Below are positions 8,651 through 49,684 of a DNA stretch of 64,000 nt, piece by piece. A program made the translations under genes and the position numbers. The notes under the pieces were generated by a model that was not told the DNA's origin, did no database searches, and saw nothing but the letters and a program-made list of their open reading frames with translations. This DNA comes from an uncultured Pseudomonadales bacterium (GTDB lineage: Bacteria; Patescibacteriota; Microgenomatia; UBA1400; PJMF01): positions 159,349 to 223,348 of the forward strand of contig CAZOVA010000001.1 of NCBI GenBank assembly GCA_964583625.1, in the 5' to 3' direction. Each line of letters starts with the position of its first letter. Within the stretch, counting starts at the first letter, position 1.

Positions 8651-11600
8651 ATGTCTTCGTTTAGCGACCATTTTCAAAGTGAGTTACAAAAATTAAATCC
8701 GCAACAGAGAGAGGCAGTAGAGTCTTTGGAGGGACCAGTCCTAGTTTTTGCTGGTCCAGGAACGGGTAAAACTCAAGTTTTGACCTTGCGGATTGCCAAT
8801 CTTATTGATCAAGGCTTAGCTGGCCCAGAAAATATCTTAGCCCTTACTTTTACTAAGGCAGCAGCAGCTAACATGCAAAAAAGATTGGCAGAATTGATTG
8901 GCATGACCGCTTTTTCTGTCACCTGTCAAACTTTTCATGGCTTTTGCCAGGAAATCATTACGGCTCACGGTGAAGATTTCCCTTTTGCTTATGAGAGTCA
9001 AGTTTTGGATGAGCTGACTGCTAGGGAAATAATGGAAGAGATAATTGACAGTTTACCTTTGCAAATTTTGCGTCCAGCGGGGGATAAATTTCATTATCTC
9101 AAAACCCTATTAGATAAAATTAATGCTTTAAAACAAGAAAATATTACTGTAGACAAATATGCCGTCCTCTTGGAAGCCGCTCGTCAAGAACAACTCGATT
9201 TTATAGCTCAAGAACAAAGTAAGAAAAAACCCAGACAAGGGGAAATCATCAAAAGCCAAAAAAAACTGCAAAAGCAAGAGGAGTTATTATTGGTTTACAC
9301 TGCTTATCAAAAAGAGATACAAGCAAAGGGCTTTCATGACTATGCTGATATTATTTTACGCACCATTGATGTTTTAAAAAATAAAACTGAACTTTTAAGT
9401 TCTTATCAGGAACAATTTCAATATCTACTAATAGATGAATATCAAGATGCTAATAATGCTCAAAGTCAACTAGCTCAGCTTTTGACATCCTATTGGCAAG
9501 ATCAAGCTAATATTTTTGCTGTTGGGGATGCTCAGCAGTCAATTTACCGTTTCCAAGGAGCAAATTTGGAAAATTTTCTTCATTTTAAAAAGATTTATCC
9601 AGAAGCTAAAGTAATTGAACTCAAAACTGGCTACCGTTGTGGCGATTATCATTATCAGTTAGCGCAGACATTGTTTGACACCGCTGAAGGGGAGCAAAAA
9701 TTATTACCAGTCAGTGGTGAACCTTTGCAAAATTTTGCTCGACGCAAAGGGGAAGCGACCGCCATCACCTCTTATCCCAATCGATTAACAGAGCTCTTAG
9801 AATTAGCGGAAAGAATTCAAAGTTTGCACCAGGAAGGGGTACCTTGGGAAGAGATGGCTGTTTTATACCGGAATAATAATGAATCAGAGGATATTTTGAC
9901 CGTTTTAACTCAGTATCAAATTCCTGTGGAGATAGAGGGGGGGACAGATGTCTTAGCTCAAGAAATAATTAATCAATGGCTCATGTTGTGGCGTTTTTTT
10001 GCAACCGTAGATGATAAGCGACTACATGATTATTATTTAGGACAAATTCTTTGGCAACCATGGTGGAATTTGGACCCCTTAGAGATTATGCAAGTTTTGC
10101 AAACAGCCAAAAAAGAAAAACAAAACTTATTAACAGTCATGTTGCAAACAAAAGACAAAAATCAGAACTCCTCAAAGCGGTGGACAGTTAATAAGCTGGC
10201 TCAACAATTGAGCAAATGGTTAAAAGATAGTTATGAACAAAAAGCTGATCGTTTCAATCAACAATTGATGCAGGACAGCCAACTTTTACCTTTTCTCGCT
10301 CAGCAAAAAAACTATTTACCTTTATTAACTTATTTTTATAGTTTGCAAAAAAGATTGCAGTCCTGGGTCAGTAAAAGTCAATCACCACTATTACTTTCTC
10401 AAGCTCTTAGTAAAATTGATTTAATGCAAAACCATCATCTCAAATTGGAAGCGCAAGATCTGAATTTAGGCGAGGGAGCAGTGGCTTTGGCTACAGCTCA
10501 TAAAGCTAAGGGGAGAGAATGGCAGTATGTTTTTTTAGTTGGTTTAAATAAAAATAATTGGCACAAAAAAGATCGCCAACTTTTACCTTTACCTGAAGGA
10601 ATTATGACCTTGCAAACCATCGGTCATGAGGAAAAAGAAGACGAAACTAAGAGATTACTTTTTGTGGCTTTGACTAGAGCAAAAAATAAAACCTTTATTA
10701 GTTGGCATGAACAGGAAGAAGAAGAATCTTTAAGTCCTCCCAAATTGCCATCTCCTTTAGTTTACCTTCTAAAAGAAAAGGCGCCGTCACACACTTGGAA
10801 AGAAGTATCCAGTCAGGTGACTGGCGAAAAAACACAGGCGGCGATGACAACCTTATTGCAATTACCTCCAGAGCATGATTTTTCGGTGGCGGCGCGGCGC
10901 TTTCTTCACCAACAAGCAAAAAAATTAATTATGTCTCCTTCCGTTTTGAACGCTTATTTAGAGGATCAAGATTCTTTTTGGCAAAATTATCTTCTTGACG
11001 CTCCGCTAGAACCCACTACGCCAGCAAAAGAGTTTGGTAGTAGTTTACATTTTGCCTTAGAAAAACTATATCAACCTCGGACTAGGAATGAAGGGTTTTT
11101 ACCTCTAGATCAAGTGCAAAAAATTTTTGCACAAGACTTTTTGCAAAAAGATATTGATGAGGCAAGTAAAAAAAGCTTCCTAGCTTTAGGTAAACAATCA
11201 TTAGCTGCTTATATTCAAACCTACGGTCAAACGGATCTCGAAACTAAAACTTTGGCAGTGGAAAAAAAATTTGGTTATCAATTCAAATTACAAGTTCAAG
11301 GGGTCCCAATCAAAGGAAAAATTGATCGTTTAGATTTTATTGACGACAAGCATCAAACCTTGCGGGTTATTGATTATAAATCAAGCAGTTATTTTAGTTT
11401 GAATGCCTTACTCTCCGGAGAATTTGGTCGAAAAAAACTCAGTGAAAGAGAAAAATTATTGCCTTCTTTTTTACAAAGTAGTATCAAAAGACAATTACTT
11501 TTTTATAAACTTTTATGCCAACTGGAACCGAACTTTCCTTATCAAGTTGAAATTGGAGCAATTGACTTTATCAAAAAATCTAGTTCTGAGAAAAAACTAG

Positions 11601-11707
11601 TGCGTCATCAAATTTCTCTTCCCAATGAAGAAGTAGAAGCTTTGAAAAATTTAATTAAAGAAATTTATGATGAAATTTTATCTTTAAAATTTTTATCGAT
11701 TGATTAA
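8651..11707 (+). CDS. UvrD/PcrA-type SF1 helicase fused to C-terminal RecB-family PD-(D/E)xK nuclease (AddA-like single-chain helicase-nuclease)
   Basis: Helicase motifs I GPGTGKT, II DEYQD, III GDAQQSIYRFQGA, VI VALTRAK. C-terminal nuclease motifs GSSLHFALE, GKIDRLDFID, VIDYKSS, QLLFYKLL. Confidence 0.8.
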   Translation: MSSFSDHFQSELQKLNPQQREAVESLEGPVLVFAGPGTGKTQVLTLRIANLIDQGLAGPENILALTFTKAAAANMQKRLAELIGMTAFSVTCQTFHGFCQEIITAHGEDFPFAYESQVLDELTAREIMEEIIDSLPLQILRPAGDKFHYLKTLLDKINALKQENITVDKYAVLLEAARQEQLDFIAQEQSKKKPRQGEIIKSQKKLQKQEELLLVYTAYQKEIQAKGFHDYADIILRTIDVLKNKTELLSSYQEQFQYLLIDEYQDANNAQSQLAQLLTSYWQDQANIFAVGDAQQSIYRFQGANLENFLHFKKIYPEAKVIELKTGYRCGDYHYQLAQTLFDTAEGEQKLLPVSGEPLQNFARRKGEATAITSYPNRLTELLELAERIQSLHQEGVPWEEMAVLYRNNNESEDILTVLTQYQIPVEIEGGTDVLAQEIINQWLMLWRFFATVDDKRLHDYYLGQILWQPWWNLDPLEIMQVLQTAKKEKQNLLTVMLQTKDKNQNSSKRWTVNKLAQQLSKWLKDSYEQKADRFNQQLMQDSQLLPFLAQQKNYLPLLTYFYSLQKRLQSWVSKSQSPLLLSQALSKIDLMQNHHLKLEAQDLNLGEGAVALATAHKAKGREWQYVFLVGLNKNNWHKKDRQLLPLPEGIMTLQTIGHEEKEDETKRLLFVALTRAKNKTFISWHEQEEEESLSPPKLPSPLVYLLKEKAPSHTWKEVSSQVTGEKTQAAMTTLLQLPPEHDFSVAARRFLHQQAKKLIMSPSVLNAYLEDQDSFWQNYLLDAPLEPTTPAKEFGSSLHFALEKLYQPRTRNEGFLPLDQVQKIFAQDFLQKDIDEASKKSFLALGKQSLAAYIQTYGQTDLETKTLAVEKKFGYQFKLQVQGVPIKGKIDRLDFIDDKHQTLRVIDYKSSSYFSLNALLSGEFGRKKLSEREKLLPSFLQSSIKRQLLFYKLLCQLEPNFPYQVEIGAIDFIKKSSSEKKLVRHQISLPNEEVEALKNLIKEIYDEILSLKFLSID

Positions 11708-11726: not shown

Positions 11727-13601
11727 ATGGAAAATAATCATCACTCTCCAACAGAACAAAACCCTTCTGTCTTTAAAGGAGAGTCTGTTAAGGAAAACTT
11801 TCAATCAGCTCTTGAAGAAAATACTCCAACTCCTCAACAATTACAAGAACTGGTAGCGGCTTTAAGCGAATCTCTTTATGTTCCCTTAGGAAATCTATAT
11901 TTAAGCGATACTGATATTGGTAGAGAATATGAAGCTTTAAGTGAATCTTTTGATAAAGCTAAAAAAGAACTTTTGCAGTTATTAGATAATAATAATTTAT
12001 CAGCAGAGGATAAAATTTATTTAATTCGAAACTTTTATTTCAGAATGATTGCTGATGGGATAATGTCACCCCTAGAGACAGCTAGCGGTCAATTGGCTCT
12101 AAGAACTTTGGAAGAAAGAGATATTAAAGAGTCGAGAGATATTCATTTGTCAATTATGAGAGGTCAGGGTATTTCTGAGGAAAAAATCTTGGACATTCTT
12201 CAACAAAAAGATGAAGAATTTCGCATTCGAGCTCGTGAGCGTGCTTTAAAAGGAATGGAAAGGACCGGTCTAAATTTTGCTTTGGAAGGATTGAGACAGC
12301 AAAAAGCTGATAATGTAAAAAAAGCTTTTAATGCTTTTTTACAAGAAAATGAAATAAAAAATTCGGTTGCAGTCAGAGAAATAATGCTTAATGAAGAAAA
12401 CCAAATAACTAATCAGTCTCAATTGGAGACAGATTTTGCCGATGGTAACTTTCTTTTTCATAGCACTGGAGTAGATAAGGCTTTGCAAATTTTACAATCA
12501 GGTTTTTTAGTTAATAGCTTAGCTTTACGAAAACAAGGAAAAGCTTTAAACGGAGCGACTAATAATTCTGGCATCGAGGGCATTTCTTGGAGTTTGAATC
12601 AAATCAGCGCCATGCCAGGAGATCGCTATCATCTAGTAGGCTTTGTCAGCAATATTGATAGTATTTTAGCCAATGATATGCAACTCACTGTACCTTCGCG
12701 CGCTGCTCCTTATGAAGTTATTCAGGTGGGAAAAGATTTGTCGGCCCAGGATTTTTATGCCTATAAAAATCAACTTGAACTGTATGAGGATTTTGGTTTT
12801 GGTGATAAAAATAGTGTTTTGTCCAATTTGATATTTCTTAGGTCTGAAGCAGATAATCAAGGGGACAAAGCAACAATTTTTCCTTCAATGATTTTAGAAA
12901 AATTAAAGTCAGAACCAGAATTTTTTCTCCAGGAAGAAAATTTAGATCAATACTATTCTTTTGAGGGAGACAGTATTTTACTAAGTGAAGATTTATTACA
13001 ACAAACAGAAATTCCCACTGGCTTAGTTTTTTTAAGAGCATTGATAAAAAGCGGGCAACTTCAGGCCCTTCATCGTTTTAGTGGAGTTGAAAATTTGAGT
13101 CAGGCAGTAGAGGTTTTGCGTAACAAAGAAGCTTATGATGATTTTATGAATGTTTTTAATAAACAAATCAAGAAAAATAGCCAGGAGATGAATAAATTTG
13201 ATGGACAAATAAAGCCTTTGGCCCAACCAGTTTCTGAAATGTTTTTTGTGGTTCCCGATCATGATTTGTCTTCTTGGAAAGAAATATTATCTCGTTGCGC
13301 GCAACAACCAAAAGGACTTTTGATTTATGATGGACAAAAAGTTCGTTTAGAAAATTTTGCTTCTCGTCACAGCGGTGACCATAATCAATTAACTCAAATT
13401 TTACGTCAGGCTATTCCGGCTAAAAGTGAAGCAGAAGGAGGTTTGAGTTATGGTCAATATTTCTTACAAAAAGACATGGCTACGACTGGAAGGACAGGTC
13501 ATCGTCTCCATGTTTTGAGAGAAAAAGATACTCAGAACCGTCAAACATTAACCAAAGAAAAATGGTTGGATTATAAAAAAAGTTTAGCAAACGATACCTA
13601 A
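11727..13601 (+). CDS. Acidic cytoplasmic hypothetical protein (624 aa) with a candidate ADP-ribosyltransferase/Tpt1-like H-Y-E motif set in its middle
   Basis: 20 nt downstream of the helicase-nuclease. FLFHSTGVDKALQILQSGF resembles PARP/Tpt1 'HG[ST]...IL..G[LF]'. Downstream GISWS and PYEVIQ sit at plausible Y/E positions. No signal peptide or TM. Confidence 0.4.
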   Translation: MENNHHSPTEQNPSVFKGESVKENFQSALEENTPTPQQLQELVAALSESLYVPLGNLYLSDTDIGREYEALSESFDKAKKELLQLLDNNNLSAEDKIYLIRNFYFRMIADGIMSPLETASGQLALRTLEERDIKESRDIHLSIMRGQGISEEKILDILQQKDEEFRIRARERALKGMERTGLNFALEGLRQQKADNVKKAFNAFLQENEIKNSVAVREIMLNEENQITNQSQLETDFADGNFLFHSTGVDKALQILQSGFLVNSLALRKQGKALNGATNNSGIEGISWSLNQISAMPGDRYHLVGFVSNIDSILANDMQLTVPSRAAPYEVIQVGKDLSAQDFYAYKNQLELYEDFGFGDKNSVLSNLIFLRSEADNQGDKATIFPSMILEKLKSEPEFFLQEENLDQYYSFEGDSILLSEDLLQQTEIPTGLVFLRALIKSGQLQALHRFSGVENLSQAVEVLRNKEAYDDFMNVFNKQIKKNSQEMNKFDGQIKPLAQPVSEMFFVVPDHDLSSWKEILSRCAQQPKGLLIYDGQKVRLENFASRHSGDHNQLTQILRQAIPAKSEAEGGLSYGQYFLQKDMATTGRTGHRLHVLREKDTQNRQTLTKEKWLDYKKSLANDT

Positions 13602-22365: not shown

Positions 22366-22442
22366 GCGCCCATAGCTCAAGTGGTTAGAGCACCAAGCTT
22401 ATACCTTGGCGGTTCGAGGTTCGAGTCCTTGTGGGCGCACCA
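22366..22442 (+). tRNA. tRNA-Ile, anticodon TAT (UAU; decodes AUA)
   Basis: Acceptor GCGCCCA/TGGGCGC. Ile-like D-arm GCTCAAGTGGTTAGAGC. Anticodon stem CCAAG/CTTGG with loop CTTATAC. T-arm CGAGGTTCGAGTCCTTG. Discriminator A, CCA encoded. Confidence 0.85.
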
Positions 22443-23585: not shown

Positions 23586-23948
23586 TTAGTTTTCACTTTC
23601 CACTCGATCAACCACTGTTTTGCAATAAAGATATTTACTTTTATCGACTATTTTTTCCGCTAGATCTTTATTTTCGCCAGCCCGACTAGCTTCTTCATTG
23701 ACAGCTCCTAAATTTTGCCAGAGATTTTCCCCTCTTTGTGTTACATTCTTCAAACCACTACCAAAATTATCCATAAAGTTTTCTACTTGCTGTTCGTCAA
23801 CATTAAATTGCATACTTTTGCCACTTAGGCTAGCGAGAGGGAGAGAAACACAAGAACGTAGTTCTTTTTTAGTAAAAAAGTGATAGCCAAAAAATAATAC
23901 CAAAGCCAGTAAAACAATTTGCAAAATAAATCGAAAAATTTTTAACAT
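23586..23948 (-). CDS. Small N-terminally membrane-anchored hypothetical protein
   Basis: Single N-terminal TM, then a hydrophilic 95-aa domain. Immediately downstream (same strand) of the pilin-like array. Confidence 0.45.
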   Translation of the reverse strand: MLKIFRFILQIVLLALVLFFGYHFFTKKELRSCVSLPLASLSGKSMQFNVDEQQVENFMDNFGSGLKNVTQRGENLWQNLGAVNEEASRAGENKDLAEKIVDKSKYLYCKTVVDRVESEN

Positions 23949-23960
23949 ATGCGTTTTTAT

Positions 23961-24329
23961 TTAGAAACCAGGGTTGAGCTCATCAATACCTGCCACTCCT
24001 AAAACCAACTTCCACAAAGCAAAAGCAGAGGCAGTAATCAAGAGACCGATGGCAGCATAAACCATTCTGTCTCTTCCGACTGTCTTTTTACTGGTTTCTC
24101 CCGAAGAAGTGATTAGAGTGATTCCTCCCCAAATTAAAAAGAAGAGGGAAGTGACAGCTGCTCCAAAAAATATCAATTGGGCAATTTTTCCTACTAAGAT
24201 AGCCCAATTAATTGTTCCATCACTATAAATTCCGCCCGCTCCTTGGAGCAAGCTACTTCCTTCACCGCCAATTTGACCCAAAAGAACCTCATTTTCTTCA
24301 GCTTGTATGTCTTTTATTAAATTAATCAT
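23961..24329 (-). CDS. Pilin-like two-helix hairpin membrane protein, paralog 1 (TrbC/VirB2-type topology)
   Basis: ~40-aa hydrophilic N-terminus, TM1, basic loop (SSGETSKKTVGRDR), TM2, C-terminal ...ELNPGF. Shares N-terminal (L)IKDIQAEE and C-terminal LNPT motifs with the neighbours. Confidence 0.6.
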   Translation of the reverse strand: MINLIKDIQAEENEVLLGQIGGEGSSLLQGAGGIYSDGTINWAILVGKIAQLIFFGAAVTSLFFLIWGGITLITSSGETSKKTVGRDRMVYAAIGLLITASAFALWKLVLGVAGIDELNPGF

Positions 24330-24346
24330 TTTTACTCCTTTACTTT

Positions 24347-24721
24347 TTACTCAATAGTTGGGTTCAAGATAGCATCTGGACTGCCAAATAAAGCATTGCC
24401 TATCCAGCCAGCAATCATCCAAGCGGAAGCGACCAAAAGTAAACCCAAAGTGGTCCAAAGAATTCTTTTCATTTCTTCGGAAAAAACTTTTGGATCTCTT
24501 GCTCCTTGAACAATTTTTAAACCAGAAGTAATAATGGTAAAAAGAAACCAAATGCCAGCAATGACAGTTGCTAGTCCTAAGGCATTGTTGACAAAATTAA
24601 TTGGTCCTGTCAATTTCCCACCTTTTTCAATATCATCATAAGTATAGCCACCTCCTATTGGATCAATGGATCCAAAGATAGAACTTTCTGTAGCTTGAAT
24701 AGTTTTAATTAAGTTTAACAT
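24347..24721 (-). CDS. Pilin-like two-helix hairpin membrane protein, paralog 2
   Basis: Same architecture. Loop motif SGLKIVQGARDPKVFSEEMKRIL is shared nearly verbatim with paralog 3. Confidence 0.6.
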   Translation of the reverse strand: MLNLIKTIQATESSIFGSIDPIGGGYTYDDIEKGGKLTGPINFVNNALGLATVIAGIWFLFTIITSGLKIVQGARDPKVFSEEMKRILWTTLGLLLVASAWMIAGWIGNALFGSPDAILNPTIE

Positions 24722-24733
24722 ATTTTTTATTCC

Positions 24734-25405
24734 TCAAATACTGCCTCTTTCTTGTGTTTTTCCTGGCCCCTTGATAGTGGGCTTGAGTAAGAAATCTTCT
24801 TCACCATAGAAGGTTTTACTCACAAAGCCAACAATGATGTAAGCGAAAACTATTAATAATAATCCCAAAGAACTTAATAATAGACGCTTCATATTTTCTC
24901 CAAAGTTTTTTGGGTCTTTACCGCCGATGATCACTTGCACACCAGACCAAAGCATGATGATCAGTAAAATACTAGCGGTAATGATTACCAGAAAATTAAT
25001 GATTTTATTAATAAAAGGAGTAATGCCTGATAAACTTTGAAAGTCGGTGGCTGTTCCCTCTACGGGAGTGATTTGTCCATAAACATAATCACCATCTAGT
25101 GTTGGATTGACTTGATCTAAACAAAACCTAGTTTTTCTATAGGTAATTCTACCATTTTCCCTACACGAAACATTAATATCAGTATAGTTAGGATAACCAG
25201 CGCTACAATCCCCACTTTCATCAGGGCAACGAACATGGTCCTTAAGAGAGGCCGGAAAGGAAGCTGTAATTTCAGCGCAAAGATCTGGATCATCACAGTT
25301 TCTGAATGAACCCGTTCCCGTACCCTCTTCATTAAGAGAAAAGACTTTTCCATTAGCGATGAAGAAGAAAATAAATATCAATGAAAAAATAATGCTTTTT
25401 TTCAT
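24734..25405 (-). CDS. Pilin-like hairpin module fused to a signal-peptide-led Cys-rich N-terminal ectodomain, paralog 3
   Basis: Signal peptide MKKSIIFSLIFIFFFIANG. ~130-aa ectodomain with 7 Cys. C-terminal module WSGVQVIIGGKDPKNFGENMKRLL...LKPTIKG. Confidence 0.6.
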   Translation of the reverse strand: MKKSIIFSLIFIFFFIANGKVFSLNEEGTGTGSFRNCDDPDLCAEITASFPASLKDHVRCPDESGDCSAGYPNYTDINVSCRENGRITYRKTRFCLDQVNPTLDGDYVYGQITPVEGTATDFQSLSGITPFINKIINFLVIITASILLIIMLWSGVQVIIGGKDPKNFGENMKRLLLSSLGLLLIVFAYIIVGFVSKTFYGEEDFLLKPTIKGPGKTQERGSI

Positions 25406-25770
25406 AAAGCCTGGACTCCTGTAACTGTTTCAATAATTCTCACTATCCAATAAGCGGCTAACATAATCATTAAACCAATCACTCCAGTAGTCAAATATTG
25501 TCGCGTACTTTCTAGAGCTTTGGATTTATCCTTCATAAAAATCAACTTATATCCAGAAAAGAGAATTAAAGCAAAAAACAAAATACCGCCCAACATAATT
25601 AAGTTTTTAGCAATGATATTAATCATTGAGCCAGTACTACTATATACAGATCTAACTCTAGTGCCAGCAGTTTGATTGAGGAGAAAATCATTAAAATATT
25701 CATAGGTCTCACTATTGGCAGTAGGGGGGCCGATAGTGGCTTGAGCGGTAGCTTGAATAGCTTCTGTCAT
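25402..25770 (-). CDS. Pilin-like two-helix hairpin membrane protein, paralog 4 (identical to paralog 5)
   Basis: 122 aa. TM1-FSGYKLIFMKDKSK loop-TM2. ATGA-type overlaps with neighbours at both ends. Confidence 0.6.
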   Translation of the reverse strand: MTEAIQATAQATIGPPTANSETYEYFNDFLLNQTAGTRVRSVYSSTGSMINIIAKNLIMLGGILFFALILFSGYKLIFMKDKSKALESTRQYLTTGVIGLMIMLAAYWIVRIIETVTGVQAL

Positions 25771-26135
25771 AAAGCCTGGACTCCTGTAACTGTTTCAATA
25801 ATTCTCACTATCCAATAAGCGGCTAACATAATCATTAAACCAATCACTCCAGTAGTCAAATATTGTCGCGTACTTTCTAGAGCTTTGGATTTATCCTTCA
25901 TAAAAATCAACTTATATCCAGAAAAGAGAATTAAAGCAAAAAACAAAATACCGCCCAACATAATTAAGTTTTTAGCAATGATATTAATCATTGAGCCAGT
26001 ACTACTATATACAGATCTAACTCTAGTGCCAGCAGTTTGATTGAGGAGAAAATCATTAAAATATTCATAGGTCTCACTATTGGCAGTAGGGGGGCCGATA
26101 GTGGCTTGAGCGGTAGCTTGAATAGCTTCTGTCAT
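25767..26135 (-). CDS. Pilin-like two-helix hairpin membrane protein, paralog 5 (100% identical copy of paralog 4)
   Basis: Identical 122-aa translation. Part of an exact 365-bp tandem duplication. Confidence 0.55.
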   Translation of the reverse strand: MTEAIQATAQATIGPPTANSETYEYFNDFLLNQTAGTRVRSVYSSTGSMINIIAKNLIMLGGILFFALILFSGYKLIFMKDKSKALESTRQYLTTGVIGLMIMLAAYWIVRIIETVTGVQAL

Positions 26136-44653: not shown

Positions 44654-47600
44654 ATGTCTGAACTAGCCTTACATTATGCGGGAATAGATGAAAAAGATTT
44701 TACTTTTAAAAAATCTGCCGACAAGAAAAAACAAAATTCTCAAAAAGAAGCAGAGATAACTGAAGAAGCCGAGGTTAGTCGTGAAATAGATTTTTATCTT
44801 CAACAAATCGACGATGAATGGGAAAAACCGCCTTCGACTTTGGAGGTTTTAAGCCCGGTTTTAGTTAAAGAAAAAGAGTTTTTTTCTGAGAAAGAAAAAG
44901 ATGTTGATATTAGTGATAAAATTGCTCAAGCAATTAATGATCAGTTCATCGCTAATAAGATAGAAACCAACTCAGAGGCAACTAGGTTTTTAACTGACCT
45001 GGGACAAAGAATGATTGAGGGGACAGAACTAAGTCAATTGCGGGTTTTTATTATTAAAAAAGGAGAAACAATTAATGCGAGTGCTTTCCCCGATGGGACA
45101 ATTTTTTTTACTCAGGCTTTGCTCAACTGTTTAGACACTGTTGATGAGATTGGAGCTGTTCTAGCTCACGAAATAGGTCATCTACTTAATAAAACCACCG
45201 TGAGCACTTATGGCAGTGAAAACTCAATTGGTCTAGGCTGGGCGCATGAAATGGCCAGTGACATCACTTCTCAATCTTTATTAGAAAAAGTTGGGCTTAA
45301 CTCTGGTGCTTTAGTGTCTGCTTTGAAAAAAATTGATGCAAAAGGCACAAAAGATGATACGTCAAGAAATAAAAGAGATATTGTTCATCAAAGTGCTCAA
45401 GCTAGAGCCTTTGAGTTTAAATTGGTTACGCAAAAACTAGACTCTCACACCAGCGATATTGATCAAACCCCCAAAGAACAATATGACTTTCTGCGCTCAG
45501 CAGAGATCCAGCCGACCAATTTTGAAATTTTGAAAAAAACTATCGATTTACGAAGCGAAGCTTTAATGACTCGAGTGCTAGAGAAGATGTCAGCCGAAGA
45601 CTTGGTTAAAACTAATCGTTTTTTGAGTGAATCTTTGAGTAAAAAGATCGAAGAGGAACAAGGTTTTTACGAGGAAACCCAAATTTATTATGATTTAGAA
45701 TCTGCTTTTATTCTTCAGACTAAAAAATCTTTAGATCAACTTTTGCAAAGAAGACTGGTCGCAGAATTGGATATCGATGAATCAGTGGCTAAGGCTATTT
45801 TTCTTATTAATGGAACTTCTAGAGAGTTTAATGATAAAGGATTAAGAGAGTTACAGCTTTTTAATTCATTTGAAGAAGTTTTGCAGGGTTTGGACGACCT
45901 ATCTTTTTGGGATAACTTTTTCAAACAAAAGAGAAATTTTTCTCCCTCTTTGCAGAAATTACTTTTCCAACCTTCGTCATATCATTATATAAATAAAGCT
46001 CCTAGAGCTCAATATCAAGAAATTTTTTTTGATCCCAAACGGTGTTTAGTAGCAGGAATGTTGAATTCTTCCTTCTATAGTTTAGAGCGTCAAAGCCCAG
46101 AAGAAGGAACTTTCTTTATTGATCCTAAAAAGTTTTTTATTCTATTTGATAGAATTTCTAATGAGCTCAATGAAGATATTAAAAAACATTTAATCGCAAG
46201 TTTTTTCTTTTTTTATTTTTATTCTAATTCTTTGGAAAATAGAGCAAAAATTTTCAGTTATGAAGAGCAAAAAGACTTTTTTACTGGGCTCAAAGCTAGA
46301 GGAATTAAATTTAATTTTATTAAGGAAAGAACAGACTCTGGTGAAAAAGGCCTAGAATTTGTAGAAAGCTTTTTTTCATCAAATACAATCGAAGCTTGGC
46401 GATTAGCTTATGGTGAATCAGCAGAACAAGACAATGAAGATGAGGGAATAGAAAAACTCTTTCAAGACTTTATTGATCAGCTCTCTTTTTTGGGGGGACA
46501 AAAAAATAGCGGTTCTTCCAAATCTTCACCTAAAGGTTTTACTCGTCAACTATCAGATTTTACGGAAAAAGTTCAAAATTTGCGCGTAAAAAGAGATATT
46601 TCTGATGAGAGTTGGGAAAAAATAATAACTGTTCTTAAAGAGAAACTGACAGCTCTTCATTTACCAGCCAGGGATCGCATTCTTGATCACGAAAACTTTT
46701 TTAGGCCAGTAGGACTAAAACATCAAATTGAAAATGAATCAGTTCAGCAGGAAAACCAAAAAGTTTTTGAATTTAAGACAGCTCTTTATATTTTCACCGT
46801 TTTGGATTGTCGAGAAAAAAACCAGCAAACTAGCCGACTAGCTAAGTTTTTAGCCGAATCGGATCTAAACTTTGAGACTTATGACTGGAAACAGCTTATT
46901 TATTTACTTCAGGGTATTTGGGCAAAAAAATTTCAAATGAGAACCTTTTTACAATCGGAACTTGGGTCAGAGGGAACTTTGCCTCCTTTTGGGTTTAGTG
47001 GGAACTATGATTTTACTCAATTGGAGAGTTTGTTACCAATTAAAATTCTTTTGGAAAAAATTGATCAAGCTTTTGTGCCCGCCGAAAACTTGGAAAAATT
47101 TTTAGTGTTAATAAAAGAGAAAAAAGACTTTTTAAATAATTTTTATCTTCCGAACTCGCCTCATATCTCTCCTGATGATGAGAATCTTTTTGATGACTCT
47201 TGGCACGAAATTTATTTTTGGAAAAATGAAAGAGAAAATCTTCTTTCTTTAATTCAAAATCTTGATCTTAGTAAAGAAAAAGCGACCGATTTCCCCACGA
47301 TTATTAATCTAATCACAGAGATCCTACCCAATGATGCTTCTTTGTCAGAGGTAAAAAATAAACTAACTTTGGCTTATCTGCGACAGAAAGAAATTCCCTT
47401 TGATCAAAGAGCAGACTTTTTCTTTCAGCAGACCGATTCAGAACTAGAGGGGGTAGAAATTCTAGCTAGCGAGATTGACGACTTAGCTGTTTATAAAAAT
47501 TTTAAAAGTAAAATAGACGCTTATCGAAAACGTTGGCAAAAAGAAAAAAAAGATCTTTCTTTGATAGCCTTAGCAGACTTTTTTTCCAGTTTTTTTAAAG

Positions 47601-49684
47601 ATCAAATTAAGGTTTTTCAAACAGCCATTCCCGAGCAAAAATTTATCAAAGAGCAGAATAATCAGCTACTCCTTCGATGGCTTGAGCTTTATGATGATAG
47701 ATTTGATCAAAAAACAGAAAAATTTTTTTTCAAAAGAGAAGGAGGACTTCAGATTAGATCTTTGGCAGATATTTATATTACCTTAAATAATTTGTCCGCT
47801 AAAGAGCGTGGCTTATTAATTAATAAGCTACTCAATGACACCAATGGCTCTCTCACTAGCCAAGAAAGACGCTTTCAGTTAGCAAAAATTGTCGACCAAG
47901 TAATTAATCTTGATCAAGATCAATTTATCACTCAAATGGTCACTATTTTAGTTGGTAAAGGAAAGGCAGAAAGCATTAGCTTGCCCTTGCTAGCTCTTTT
48001 TCAACCACTAATATTTAAAAATTTACAAACAGAAAACCTGCAGGCTTCTCGCTTTTTGAATGATATTAGAGAACAAACAGTGACTGAAATTCAAACTAAA
48101 AGAAAATTGACCAAAAAGGAAGCTGAAACAGTAATAAAACAGGAACTAATTGAACCATTGCTTTCTTCAGAAAAAAGTCTGATTAATGAAACGGTCTTGT
48201 CTTTTGATCCAGAATATAGTGAGAGACAAGATCTAGCAAGAAAGATTGATTATATAGCTAATAGCTCCACGAGAGACATAACTTTCTTTGGGCCAGATTA
48301 TATTCATCAACCAGAATCAAGAGCGGCTCTTTTAGCTCAGGAAAGTAATGAAGCTTATCATTTTATTTTTCAAACCCTTCTAGCTAAAATCAAACTTTTG
48401 GAAGAAACCGCAGAGAGGGAACCAGAAGCAGAAAAGGTGGTTGAAAATCAACAAATTGAAGCTATTGTTGGGAGTTTGGAGGCGGGCGGAGCAGTTATGG
48501 TGCGCCAATTGCAATTAGCAACCCAATTTGTCAAATTTGACTCTGCTTGGCAAAAAAGATTGAGTCGGACTTTGGATAGTAATCCAGGATTAAGTAAACT
48601 GGAGGCTTGGCAAAATCTTTACCATTGGACCATTGAGGTCAAACCAGAAAATGAGCAAGAGAAAAAAGAGCAATTGGAATTACAGGAGCTCTTTCAGCAT
48701 TACCGTTTGGGTCAAAAAGTGGGCGGAGGTAGTTTGAATACTATCTTTGAACTCATTCCTTTGAACCCCGAAAGTCATCCACCGGCAGTGATTAGAATTC
48801 AGAACCCCAATGTAGCCGCCAATGTTATGGATATGTCTCAAACTCTAGCTGAAGCCTATGACGCTCTAAAAGAGAATCCCAGTCTGAAAAAAGAAGCTCG
48901 GATTGGAGCGATGATCAATGATCTATCGAGAAAATGGTGCTTATCCGACATTAGAGACCCTCGTTTTCTAGATGATGATAATCAATTTCGACTGGTTTTA
49001 GCTGCTTTTCGTCCTAGTGATGAAGGAGCAGTTGTCTCTGCTCCAGAATTAGGGCTGACTCAGGCTAAAGTTAAAGTGGAACAATTAGCTCCAGGGGAAA
49101 CTTTGAATAAACTTTTAACTAGCCCAGACATCAGCGAAGAAGACAAAAATCGTTTGAGAAAAACCTTTTGTGAGCTTTTTCTTCATCAGTTGGATTTTGA
49201 AAAAAACAAAGTAGTGAACAGTCAAGGGAGAGAAGAAATTATTGTCCATTCCGATCAACATTTGGGAAATTATATGGCAGAGATTTTACCAGATGGTTCA
49301 ATTAATTTTTCTGTGATTGATCGCAATATGTATTTGCATTTGGAGGCGGATGATGTGCAAGTTATAAAAACTCTCTTATCTGAAAAGGGTGGCGGTTTAG
49401 AGTTTGTCCGGAAATTGGTTGACCGTGTTTTAGATATTAATAAAATTCTTAATCCAGTAGATCGTAAAAAAACTCAAGACCAGATTCGAAAAAAACTAAT
49501 TTTAAATGGGGTGAAAAATATTTTCCACCGTCGTCAAGGAGATGATCTAGAACAATTACAAATTATTTTTGAACAACTAGCTTTGCAGAACTATGAGATT
49601 CCTCTCAACTTGCAACTGATGATTCGTAATACCACCGCTTATAAAAATATCAAAGCTGAGTTGGACCGGGCAGAAAAAGACTAA
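44654..49684 (+). CDS. Giant (1676 aa) cytoplasmic multidomain protein: N-terminal M48-type Zn-metallopeptidase domain ... long helical middle ... C-terminal ABC1/UbiB-type atypical protein-kinase-like domain
   Basis: M48 signature NASAFPDGTIFFTQALL..DEIGAVLAHEIGHLL plus downstream HEMASD (third ligand) at ~44.95-45.3 kb. ABC1 motifs VRQLQLATQ..LDSNP, LGQKVGGGSLNTIFE, AVIRIQNP, HSDQHLGN...SVIDRN at ~48.45-49.45 kb. No TM segments. Confidence 0.65.
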   Translation: MSELALHYAGIDEKDFTFKKSADKKKQNSQKEAEITEEAEVSREIDFYLQQIDDEWEKPPSTLEVLSPVLVKEKEFFSEKEKDVDISDKIAQAINDQFIANKIETNSEATRFLTDLGQRMIEGTELSQLRVFIIKKGETINASAFPDGTIFFTQALLNCLDTVDEIGAVLAHEIGHLLNKTTVSTYGSENSIGLGWAHEMASDITSQSLLEKVGLNSGALVSALKKIDAKGTKDDTSRNKRDIVHQSAQARAFEFKLVTQKLDSHTSDIDQTPKEQYDFLRSAEIQPTNFEILKKTIDLRSEALMTRVLEKMSAEDLVKTNRFLSESLSKKIEEEQGFYEETQIYYDLESAFILQTKKSLDQLLQRRLVAELDIDESVAKAIFLINGTSREFNDKGLRELQLFNSFEEVLQGLDDLSFWDNFFKQKRNFSPSLQKLLFQPSSYHYINKAPRAQYQEIFFDPKRCLVAGMLNSSFYSLERQSPEEGTFFIDPKKFFILFDRISNELNEDIKKHLIASFFFFYFYSNSLENRAKIFSYEEQKDFFTGLKARGIKFNFIKERTDSGEKGLEFVESFFSSNTIEAWRLAYGESAEQDNEDEGIEKLFQDFIDQLSFLGGQKNSGSSKSSPKGFTRQLSDFTEKVQNLRVKRDISDESWEKIITVLKEKLTALHLPARDRILDHENFFRPVGLKHQIENESVQQENQKVFEFKTALYIFTVLDCREKNQQTSRLAKFLAESDLNFETYDWKQLIYLLQGIWAKKFQMRTFLQSELGSEGTLPPFGFSGNYDFTQLESLLPIKILLEKIDQAFVPAENLEKFLVLIKEKKDFLNNFYLPNSPHISPDDENLFDDSWHEIYFWKNERENLLSLIQNLDLSKEKATDFPTIINLITEILPNDASLSEVKNKLTLAYLRQKEIPFDQRADFFFQQTDSELEGVEILASEIDDLAVYKNFKSKIDAYRKRWQKEKKDLSLIALADFFSSFFKDQIKVFQTAIPEQKFIKEQNNQLLLRWLELYDDRFDQKTEKFFFKREGGLQIRSLADIYITLNNLSAKERGLLINKLLNDTNGSLTSQERRFQLAKIVDQVINLDQDQFITQMVTILVGKGKAESISLPLLALFQPLIFKNLQTENLQASRFLNDIREQTVTEIQTKRKLTKKEAETVIKQELIEPLLSSEKSLINETVLSFDPEYSERQDLARKIDYIANSSTRDITFFGPDYIHQPESRAALLAQESNEAYHFIFQTLLAKIKLLEETAEREPEAEKVVENQQIEAIVGSLEAGGAVMVRQLQLATQFVKFDSAWQKRLSRTLDSNPGLSKLEAWQNLYHWTIEVKPENEQEKKEQLELQELFQHYRLGQKVGGGSLNTIFELIPLNPESHPPAVIRIQNPNVAANVMDMSQTLAEAYDALKENPSLKKEARIGAMINDLSRKWCLSDIRDPRFLDDDNQFRLVLAAFRPSDEGAVVSAPELGLTQAKVKVEQLAPGETLNKLLTSPDISEEDKNRLRKTFCELFLHQLDFEKNKVVNSQGREEIIVHSDQHLGNYMAEILPDGSINFSVIDRNMYLHLEADDVQVIKTLLSEKGGGLEFVRKLVDRVLDINKILNPVDRKKTQDQIRKKLILNGVKNIFHRRQGDDLEQLQIIFEQLALQNYEIPLNLQLMIRNTTAYKNIKAELDRAEKD

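Follow-up and report, generated by a model that had tools for sequence, protein, structure and literature searches.

The gene at positions 11727..13601 (+) of a 64,000-nucleotide stretch of contig CAZOVA010000001.1, here called the window, encodes a 624-aa protein whose central ~140 residues resemble the His-type (H-Y-E-like) ADP-ribosyltransferases (ARTs). We assign a rough probability of 0.62 to the reading in which this segment has such a fold and in which the protein most likely uses bound NAD+ to place ADP-ribose on an acceptor inside the cell. The protein represents a real, previously unannotated ART-fold family and is probably an active NAD+-dependent transferase. Its open reading frame (ORF) opens with ATG and comprises 624 codons followed by a TAA stop, and the start codon is supported because the homologues share the Met1-Glu2 start in the alignment. 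An earlier note on this DNA had located this ORF and three ART-like motifs within it correctly, and had tentatively proposed an ART-like enzyme; this proposal was supported by the fold predicted for the core and by the conservation of its His and Glu among homologues, as described below.

The fold assignment was made with AlphaFold2 (AF2). Modelling with a 63-sequence alignment of the family gave a predicted local distance difference test score (pLDDT) of 92.2 and a predicted template modelling score (pTM) of 0.89, with all five models at 90-92, and was used in place of a run with a 4-sequence alignment (pLDDT 50, core below 50), which was discarded. An alpha/beta core was predicted at residues 216-355 (12372..12791, +), with six main strands (243-247, 260-262, 286-290, 304-308, 318-321 and 330-335) and a helix (249-258) following the first of them. 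The key residues map to strands 243-247, 286-290 and 330-335, in the order strand-His-helix, strand and Glu-strand that is canonical for ARTs. At the fold level the model shows the split beta-sheet core of the ADP-ribosyltransferase superfamily, with the His ending strand 1, the residue corresponding to Tyr/Ser on the second core strand and the Glu beginning strand 5. The central domain is predicted with high confidence to have the fold of NAD+-using ADP-ribosyltransferases.

The closest solved folds were those of DarT enzymes, rather than PARP or Tpt1. The fold comparison returned 7yk3_C from M. tuberculosis (7.0; 129; 3.5 Å; 12%), 8baq_A, the DarT1 of E. coli C7 (6.8; 126; 3.2 Å; 16%), 7omv from Thermus (6.6; 127; 2.8 Å; 13%) and 7omu from Thermosipho (6.4; 127; 2.9 Å; 13%). 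A Foldseek search of the Protein Data Bank (PDB) also placed a DarTG structure, 7omu, at the top, at a non-significant E of 0.63, and nothing significant was returned by Foldseek from the viral structures of BFVD.

The three motifs fall on the strands of this core. Motif 1, FLFHSTGVDKALQILQSGFLVNS, covers residues 242-264 (nt 12450-12518) and carries His245 (codon 12459..12461, +) in the pattern F-L-x-H-[GST]-[TAS]; this is the predicted NAD+ ribose-binding His. GISWSL begins at G285, 40 aa past H245, and brings Ser287-Trp288 (12585..12590, +; family pattern G-[IV]-S-[WF]-[SN]) onto strand 286-290, at the predicted nicotinamide pocket and the 'Y' position of H-Y-E. PYEVIQV begins at P328 and contains the predicted catalytic Glu330 (12714..12716, +), with which strand 330-335, the fifth strand, begins.

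Conservation was counted over 105 sequences matching the hidden Markov model (HMM) of the core, with the sequences covering each position as denominators. The His and the Glu that the earlier note had proposed were found in 101/102 and 95/95 sequences, respectively, and E330 was also invariant in the 63-sequence alignment. High counts were likewise obtained for F237 (100/100), G259 (98/102), G282 (99/101), S287 (91/99), H302 (95/99), F306 (97/99) and P323 (90/96), and position 288 was aromatic in 94 of 99 sequences (66 W and 28 F). When motif 1 was written as a regular expression and run over all window ORFs of at least 100 aa (20,383 residues), this protein gave the single match, compared with a chance expectation of 0.015 per 40,000 shuffled residues, a check that is only indicative because the pattern was composed after the fact. 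We consider it highly improbable that the motif likeness is due to chance and that the domain is unrelated to ARTs, as the conserved residues lie exactly on the expected strands.

The second motif had been proposed to supply the aromatic 'Y' of the triad. Conservation of W/F at position 288 agrees with this in part; the classical 'Y' position itself is most likely taken by the adjoining, conserved Ser287, so that the triad would read H-S-E, as in DarT1. In DarT1, His17 binds the adenosine ribose, a conserved Ser63 occupies the 'Y' position of H-Y-E and Glu152 is catalytic, and the enzyme is an active ART despite its Ser at that position (PMC11543638); an H-S-E triad is thus compatible with activity.

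We infer NAD+ binding, catalysis and the roles of individual residues from such analogies, among which that with DarT1 H17 (PMC11543638) would assign His245 to the NAD+ pocket. In the mechanism that we propose by analogy with DarT and PARP, His245, which closes strand 1, would hydrogen-bond the adenine-proximal ribose, and Gly-rich loops (G259, G282, G285) would hold the dinucleotide. Ser287 and Trp288 of the next core strand would line the nicotinamide pocket, and Glu330, invariant and leading strand 5, would polarise the nicotinamide-ribose bond and activate the acceptor. Target selection or gating of the active site may fall to the variable N-terminal helices together with the two conserved regions behind the core, the helical one and the basic C-terminal one.

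Known ART families were compared at the sequence level. Scans of the 624-aa protein against Pfam, NCBIfam, PADLOC and PHROGs gave no match, and phmmer against the PDB returned nothing. Among the 63 family members, the Pfam family matched most often was the PARP catalytic model (4/63, best E 0.0015, sub-threshold); in P0064 this match scored 12.5 bits, against a gathering cut-off of 26.7, and covered only model positions 22-71, which correspond to motif 1. No PARP match reached the gathering threshold, and the window protein itself had no PF00644 match. With hhalign, the core aligned to PARP1 at a probability of 2%, over motif 1 only, and to a 30-sequence DarT2 alignment (the EPEC darT gene and homologues) at 0.3%. 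PF14487 neither matched the window protein nor appeared among the 25 families most matched by the 63 members, and PADLOC yielded no DarT match. Scans of longer and shorter family members for fused domains were uninformative. Since the direct profile comparisons fail, the protein has no sequence-level membership in PARP, Tpt1 or DarT. The sub-threshold signals all point to ARTs.

The likeness to PARP and Tpt1 that the earlier note had described holds for motif 1 and does not extend to the rest of the sequence. With PARP (PF00644, H-Y-E/ARTD) the family has in common the order His, aromatic strand and Glu at similar spacing, as well as the H-G-[ST] and I-L-x-x-G-L motif; the PARP triad has Tyr where this family has Ser, and the PARP regulatory/helical subdomain is absent from the 624-aa protein. 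With Tpt1/KptA it has in common the motif L-x-H-G-T-x(6)-I-x-x-S-G. The best PDB match of the core profile was indeed a tRNA 2'-phosphotransferase (7yw4), on 'LxHGT......I..SG' at a sub-threshold E of 0.031, and neighbours of the gene in other genomes are often translation- or RNA-related housekeeping genes. Both observations would fit a housekeeping enzyme of RNA-end processing that removes 2'-phosphates with NAD+, as Tpt1/KptA does. That match, however, spans 24 residues only, the Tpt1 models of Pfam and NCBIfam gave no match, and neither a Tpt1/KptA family-HMM match nor a two-lobe arrangement was found. Tpt1 chemistry uses an Arg-His-Arg-Arg tetrad located in a separate N-terminal lobe and needs no ART catalytic Glu. 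In the 624-aa family the Glu is invariant and the lobe and tetrad are not evident, and we regard an RNA 2'-phosphotransferase as very unlikely.

Structurally, the DarT1/DarT2 enzymes (PF14487/DUF4433; 8BAQ, 7OMV, 7OMU, 7YK3) are the nearest comparison. They have the same compact six-stranded ART core, the strand-1 His and the catalytic Glu, and DarT1 also has Ser at the Tyr position. Motif 1 reads F-L-x-H-G-T in the 624-aa family versus I-V-H-R-D-N in DarT2, and S287 and E330 are separated by 43 residues, compared with 89 for S63-E152 in DarT1. Unlike DarT, the ART domain sits within a 624-aa protein with conserved extra regions, and the gene is chromosomal, in housekeeping contexts and in candidate-phyla-radiation (CPR) bacteria. 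DarT has a DarG or NADAR antitoxin adjacent, whereas none adjoins the gene of the 624-aa protein.

Some of these features would also be expected of an ART fold without transferase function, such as a sensor of NAD+ or ADP-ribose, an NAD+ glycohydrolase or a ligand-binding structural protein. Compared with DarT, strand 4 is followed by Glu330 after only a short segment, no conserved acceptor-recognition loop could be identified, large non-catalytic regions are conserved, and no antitoxin was seen. Many ART toxins require an antitoxin. Pseudo-enzymes, on the other hand, usually lose the catalytic Glu, whereas in this family the His and Glu are near-invariant over ~100 diverged sequences, which is the pattern of active ARTs. 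Loss of transferase function is, in our estimation, quite improbable.

Several points weigh against an active ADP-ribosyltransferase nonetheless. The fold assignment depends on a predicted structure, and the equivalence of H245, S287 and E330 to catalytic residues is drawn from their predicted strand positions. No sequence method reached significance against any ART family. DarT has an essential Arg51/52 in the loop ahead of its Y/S strand and a long DNA-binding ARTT loop; this Arg seems to lack an invariant counterpart here, loop 270-285 having conserved N/S/G/E/G and no invariant Arg, and the ART core is acidic (isoelectric point (pI) 4.6), unlike the DNA-binding DarT. Finally, 4 of the 44 fetched loci hold disrupted copies of the gene, which indicates that it is dispensable in some lineages.

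For the acceptor, a rough division gives nucleic acid and protein a little over one chance in three each, with small-molecule modification or NAD+ hydrolysis at about one in seven and an inactive protein at the same level. A nucleic acid is suggested by the resemblance of the fold to DarT and of motif 1 to Tpt1, by the basic C-terminus and by the helicase-nuclease encoded next door in this lineage. A protein or small molecule is suggested by the acidity of the core, by the apparent lack of the Arg of DarT, by the shortness of the substrate loop and by the lack of an antitoxin.

Outside the core, the protein agrees with the earlier description of an ART domain embedded in a larger scaffold, the core taking up residues 216-355 of 624 and the regions behind it being conserved. 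The N-terminal region (residues 1-215; 11727..12371, +) is modelled with its first ~20 residues disordered and long helices after them; it is where the family varies most, and most homologues align only from about profile position 130-230 on. A helical middle region (residues 356-495; 12792..13211, +), with a small hairpin at 410-419 in the AF2 model, is conserved among the longer members. The C-terminal alpha/beta region (residues 496-624; 13212..13598, +) is basic (pI 9.3), with conserved motifs P-D-x-D-L..W, P-K-G-I and R-L-E-N-F..G-D-H and conserved residues D513, P528, E542, F544, G550 and D551; its profile gave only spurious helical matches against the PDB, with nothing meaningful. As the earlier note had stated, the protein as a whole is acidic, with a pI of 5.1, and lacks an export signal: the highest 19-residue Kyte-Doolittle mean was 1.09, which excludes a transmembrane segment or signal peptide. 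It is a cytoplasmic, acidic, multi-domain protein.

Relatives were scarce in a word-indexed search with the single protein, which found only four; its repetition with the 63-sequence alignment added none. An exhaustive HMMER search with an alignment of those relatives detected 117 representatives at 50% identity (E ≤ 1e-3), 113 of them at E ≤ 1e-10. None of the source records carries a functional name, and one is labelled 'hypothetical protein'. The taxon-labelled genome matches were two Candidatus Shapirobacteria, one Saccharibacteria and one metagenome-assembled genome (MAG) labelled 'uncultured Pseudomonadales', so that the named matches are mostly CPR/Patescibacteria (3/4). The nearest genome relative (L008, CAYVKW010000009.1) is the one labelled 'uncultured Pseudomonadales bacterium', its contig having 41% GC, and this label may result from an error in binning or in classification. 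A scan of viral contigs found no relatives of the protein, and the literature searched for this family or for CPR ARTs contained no description of them.

The gene is broken in different ways in its disrupted copies. In the nearest named MAG (L005/L006/L008; ~11066 in L005) a CAA to TAA change, at a codon for Gln in the homologues, cuts it into 355 + 273 aa directly past the ART core, and the copies in L011, L030 and L038 contain frameshifts and/or stop codons.

In the window, the ART gene lies directly behind the gene for a 1018-aa fusion of UvrD-helicase, UvrD_C and PD-(D/E)XK domains (8651..11707, +), with 19 nt between the end of that gene and its ATG, and a Fic/helix-turn-helix (HTH) protein (7051-8175, +; PADLOC SoFic model, E 3e-47) is encoded upstream. 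Pfam domains agree with the earlier note on this UvrD-nuclease and Fic setting. Between the Fic and helicase genes there is a 110-aa ORF (8238-8570, +) with weak matches to sortase-dependent surface proteins of the LPXTG/QVPTGV type. A consensus scan found a terminator-like hairpin (8593..8620, +) after this small ORF and upstream of the helicase gene, and no such site in the gap between the helicase-nuclease and ART genes. This hairpin would bound a two-gene helicase and ART transcription unit, on weak evidence because the number of terminator-like sites was not clearly above the shuffled expectation. Given the gap free of such sites and the one upstream of the helicase, co-transcription of both genes is plausible in this genome.

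The three closest lineages (L001-L006, L008) show the same gene order of Fic, small ORF, UvrD-nuclease and ART, followed on the opposite strand by a hexapeptide transferase and then a DsbA-like protein. As the entire block is syntenic in these relatives, the adjacency of UvrD-nuclease and ART genes is no more conserved than its background. A tblastn search of 36 other loci, drawn from genomes and metagenomes, found no homologue of the UvrD-nuclease, of Fic or of the other block neighbours, and clustering of flanking ORFs over 44 loci produced no family-wide partner. A conserved helicase-ART operon was accordingly rejected: the operonic link claimed before stands for this genome and its three closest relatives, and its absence from the 36 more distant loci means that the pairing is not a family-wide functional link. 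Recurring neighbours that were inspected, assigned by Pfam matches or by reading their sequences, were housekeeping genes (ATP synthase, RmlD, UMP kinase, YchF, L19, RNase HII, EF-G and ClpB). We conclude that the position behind the UvrD-nuclease gene is a trait of this lineage only, and that the ART gene stands alone on the chromosome, apparently of CPR bacteria, with no partner conserved beside it.

These contexts bear on the possibility of a toxin or defence effector that, like DarT, would ADP-ribosylate nucleic acid and would form a two-gene system with the UvrD-type helicase-nuclease, in which the helicase would expose single-stranded DNA or process modified DNA. Such a system would be in line with DNA-modifying DarT enzymes being the closest solved folds, with the short terminator-free gap, and with an adjacency retained in relatives whose ART protein is merely 46% identical. 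The nearby Fic protein with its SoFic match, the basic C-terminal region and the existence of disrupted copies can be read in the same direction, as can the faster evolution of the ART gene: within the syntenic block its product is the least conserved, with an identity of 46%, the helicase having 57%, the acetyltransferase 77% and Fic 90%. DarT lesions are, moreover, repaired by the nucleotide excision repair and RecF pathways (PMC7003065). Against it, synteny in those relatives extends to the whole block, and the 36 distant loci share no neighbour with it and have housekeeping genes instead. The neighbours scanned (window, L007, L009 and L010) included no candidate antitoxin, whether macrodomain, NADAR or other; there is no PADLOC DarT match and no relative on viral contigs, and the ART core is acidic. 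Nor was the co-occurrence typical of a Gabija-like helicase-nuclease defence system observed, since the GajB matches of the helicase in PADLOC reflect generic UvrD similarity and no GajA-like partner for it was found. The toxin or defence role suggested earlier thus received no support from the genomic contexts, and we hold the two-gene system to be unlikely. A similarly low probability is given to an antitoxin-less, self-regulated DarT relative that would ADP-ribosylate DNA or RNA as a normal, chromosomally encoded function of CPR/Patescibacteria and be coupled here to a UvrD-type helicase-nuclease.

The Fic/HTH protein itself is 88-90% identical between the window (7051-8175), L001 (66-1187) and L005 (4282-5406), where the flanking genes are 46-77% identical; either its sequence is under unusual constraint or the gene has recently been exchanged.

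ADP-ribosyltransferases are driving enzymes of toxin-antitoxin systems, of defence against phages, of DNA-damage signalling and of resistance to antibiotics, and new ART families have repeatedly exposed new substrates, such as DNA thymine and guanine and RNA 2'-OH groups. The present family is a new one in this well-known superfamily; its domain context is new and its phyletic range restricted, and it escapes all four annotation libraries tested while comprising at least 117 clusters at 50% identity. Its minimal DarT-like core, joined to two conserved regions and lacking an antitoxin, could bring to light an acceptor or a form of ART regulation that is new. A set of hypothetical proteins receives a concrete annotation and candidate catalytic residues (H245, S287/W288, E330), and the CPR bacteria, source of three of the four named genome matches, are organisms whose biology is poorly understood. 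If the antitoxin-less DarT relative were real, it would constitute a new nucleic-acid modification and repair/regulation module in episymbiotic bacteria, or a host-delivered effector.

Six tandem small ORFs (120-124 aa, one of 223 aa) occupy 23586-26135 (-), and at least two match T4SS_pilin or TrbC/VirB2, so that they look like a paralogous pilin array; this array could bear on the ART protein if the organism exports effectors. An Rfam scan of the window detected tRNAs only, among them a tRNA-Ile with anticodon TAT (UAU) at 22366-22442 (+) that had been called by ARAGORN. Bacteria usually read AUA with a lysidine-modified CAU tRNA, and the UAU anticodon is uncommon. Further downstream, a 1676-aa ORF (44654-49684, +) has a single Pfam match, to a short stretch of M48 peptidase close to its N-terminus.

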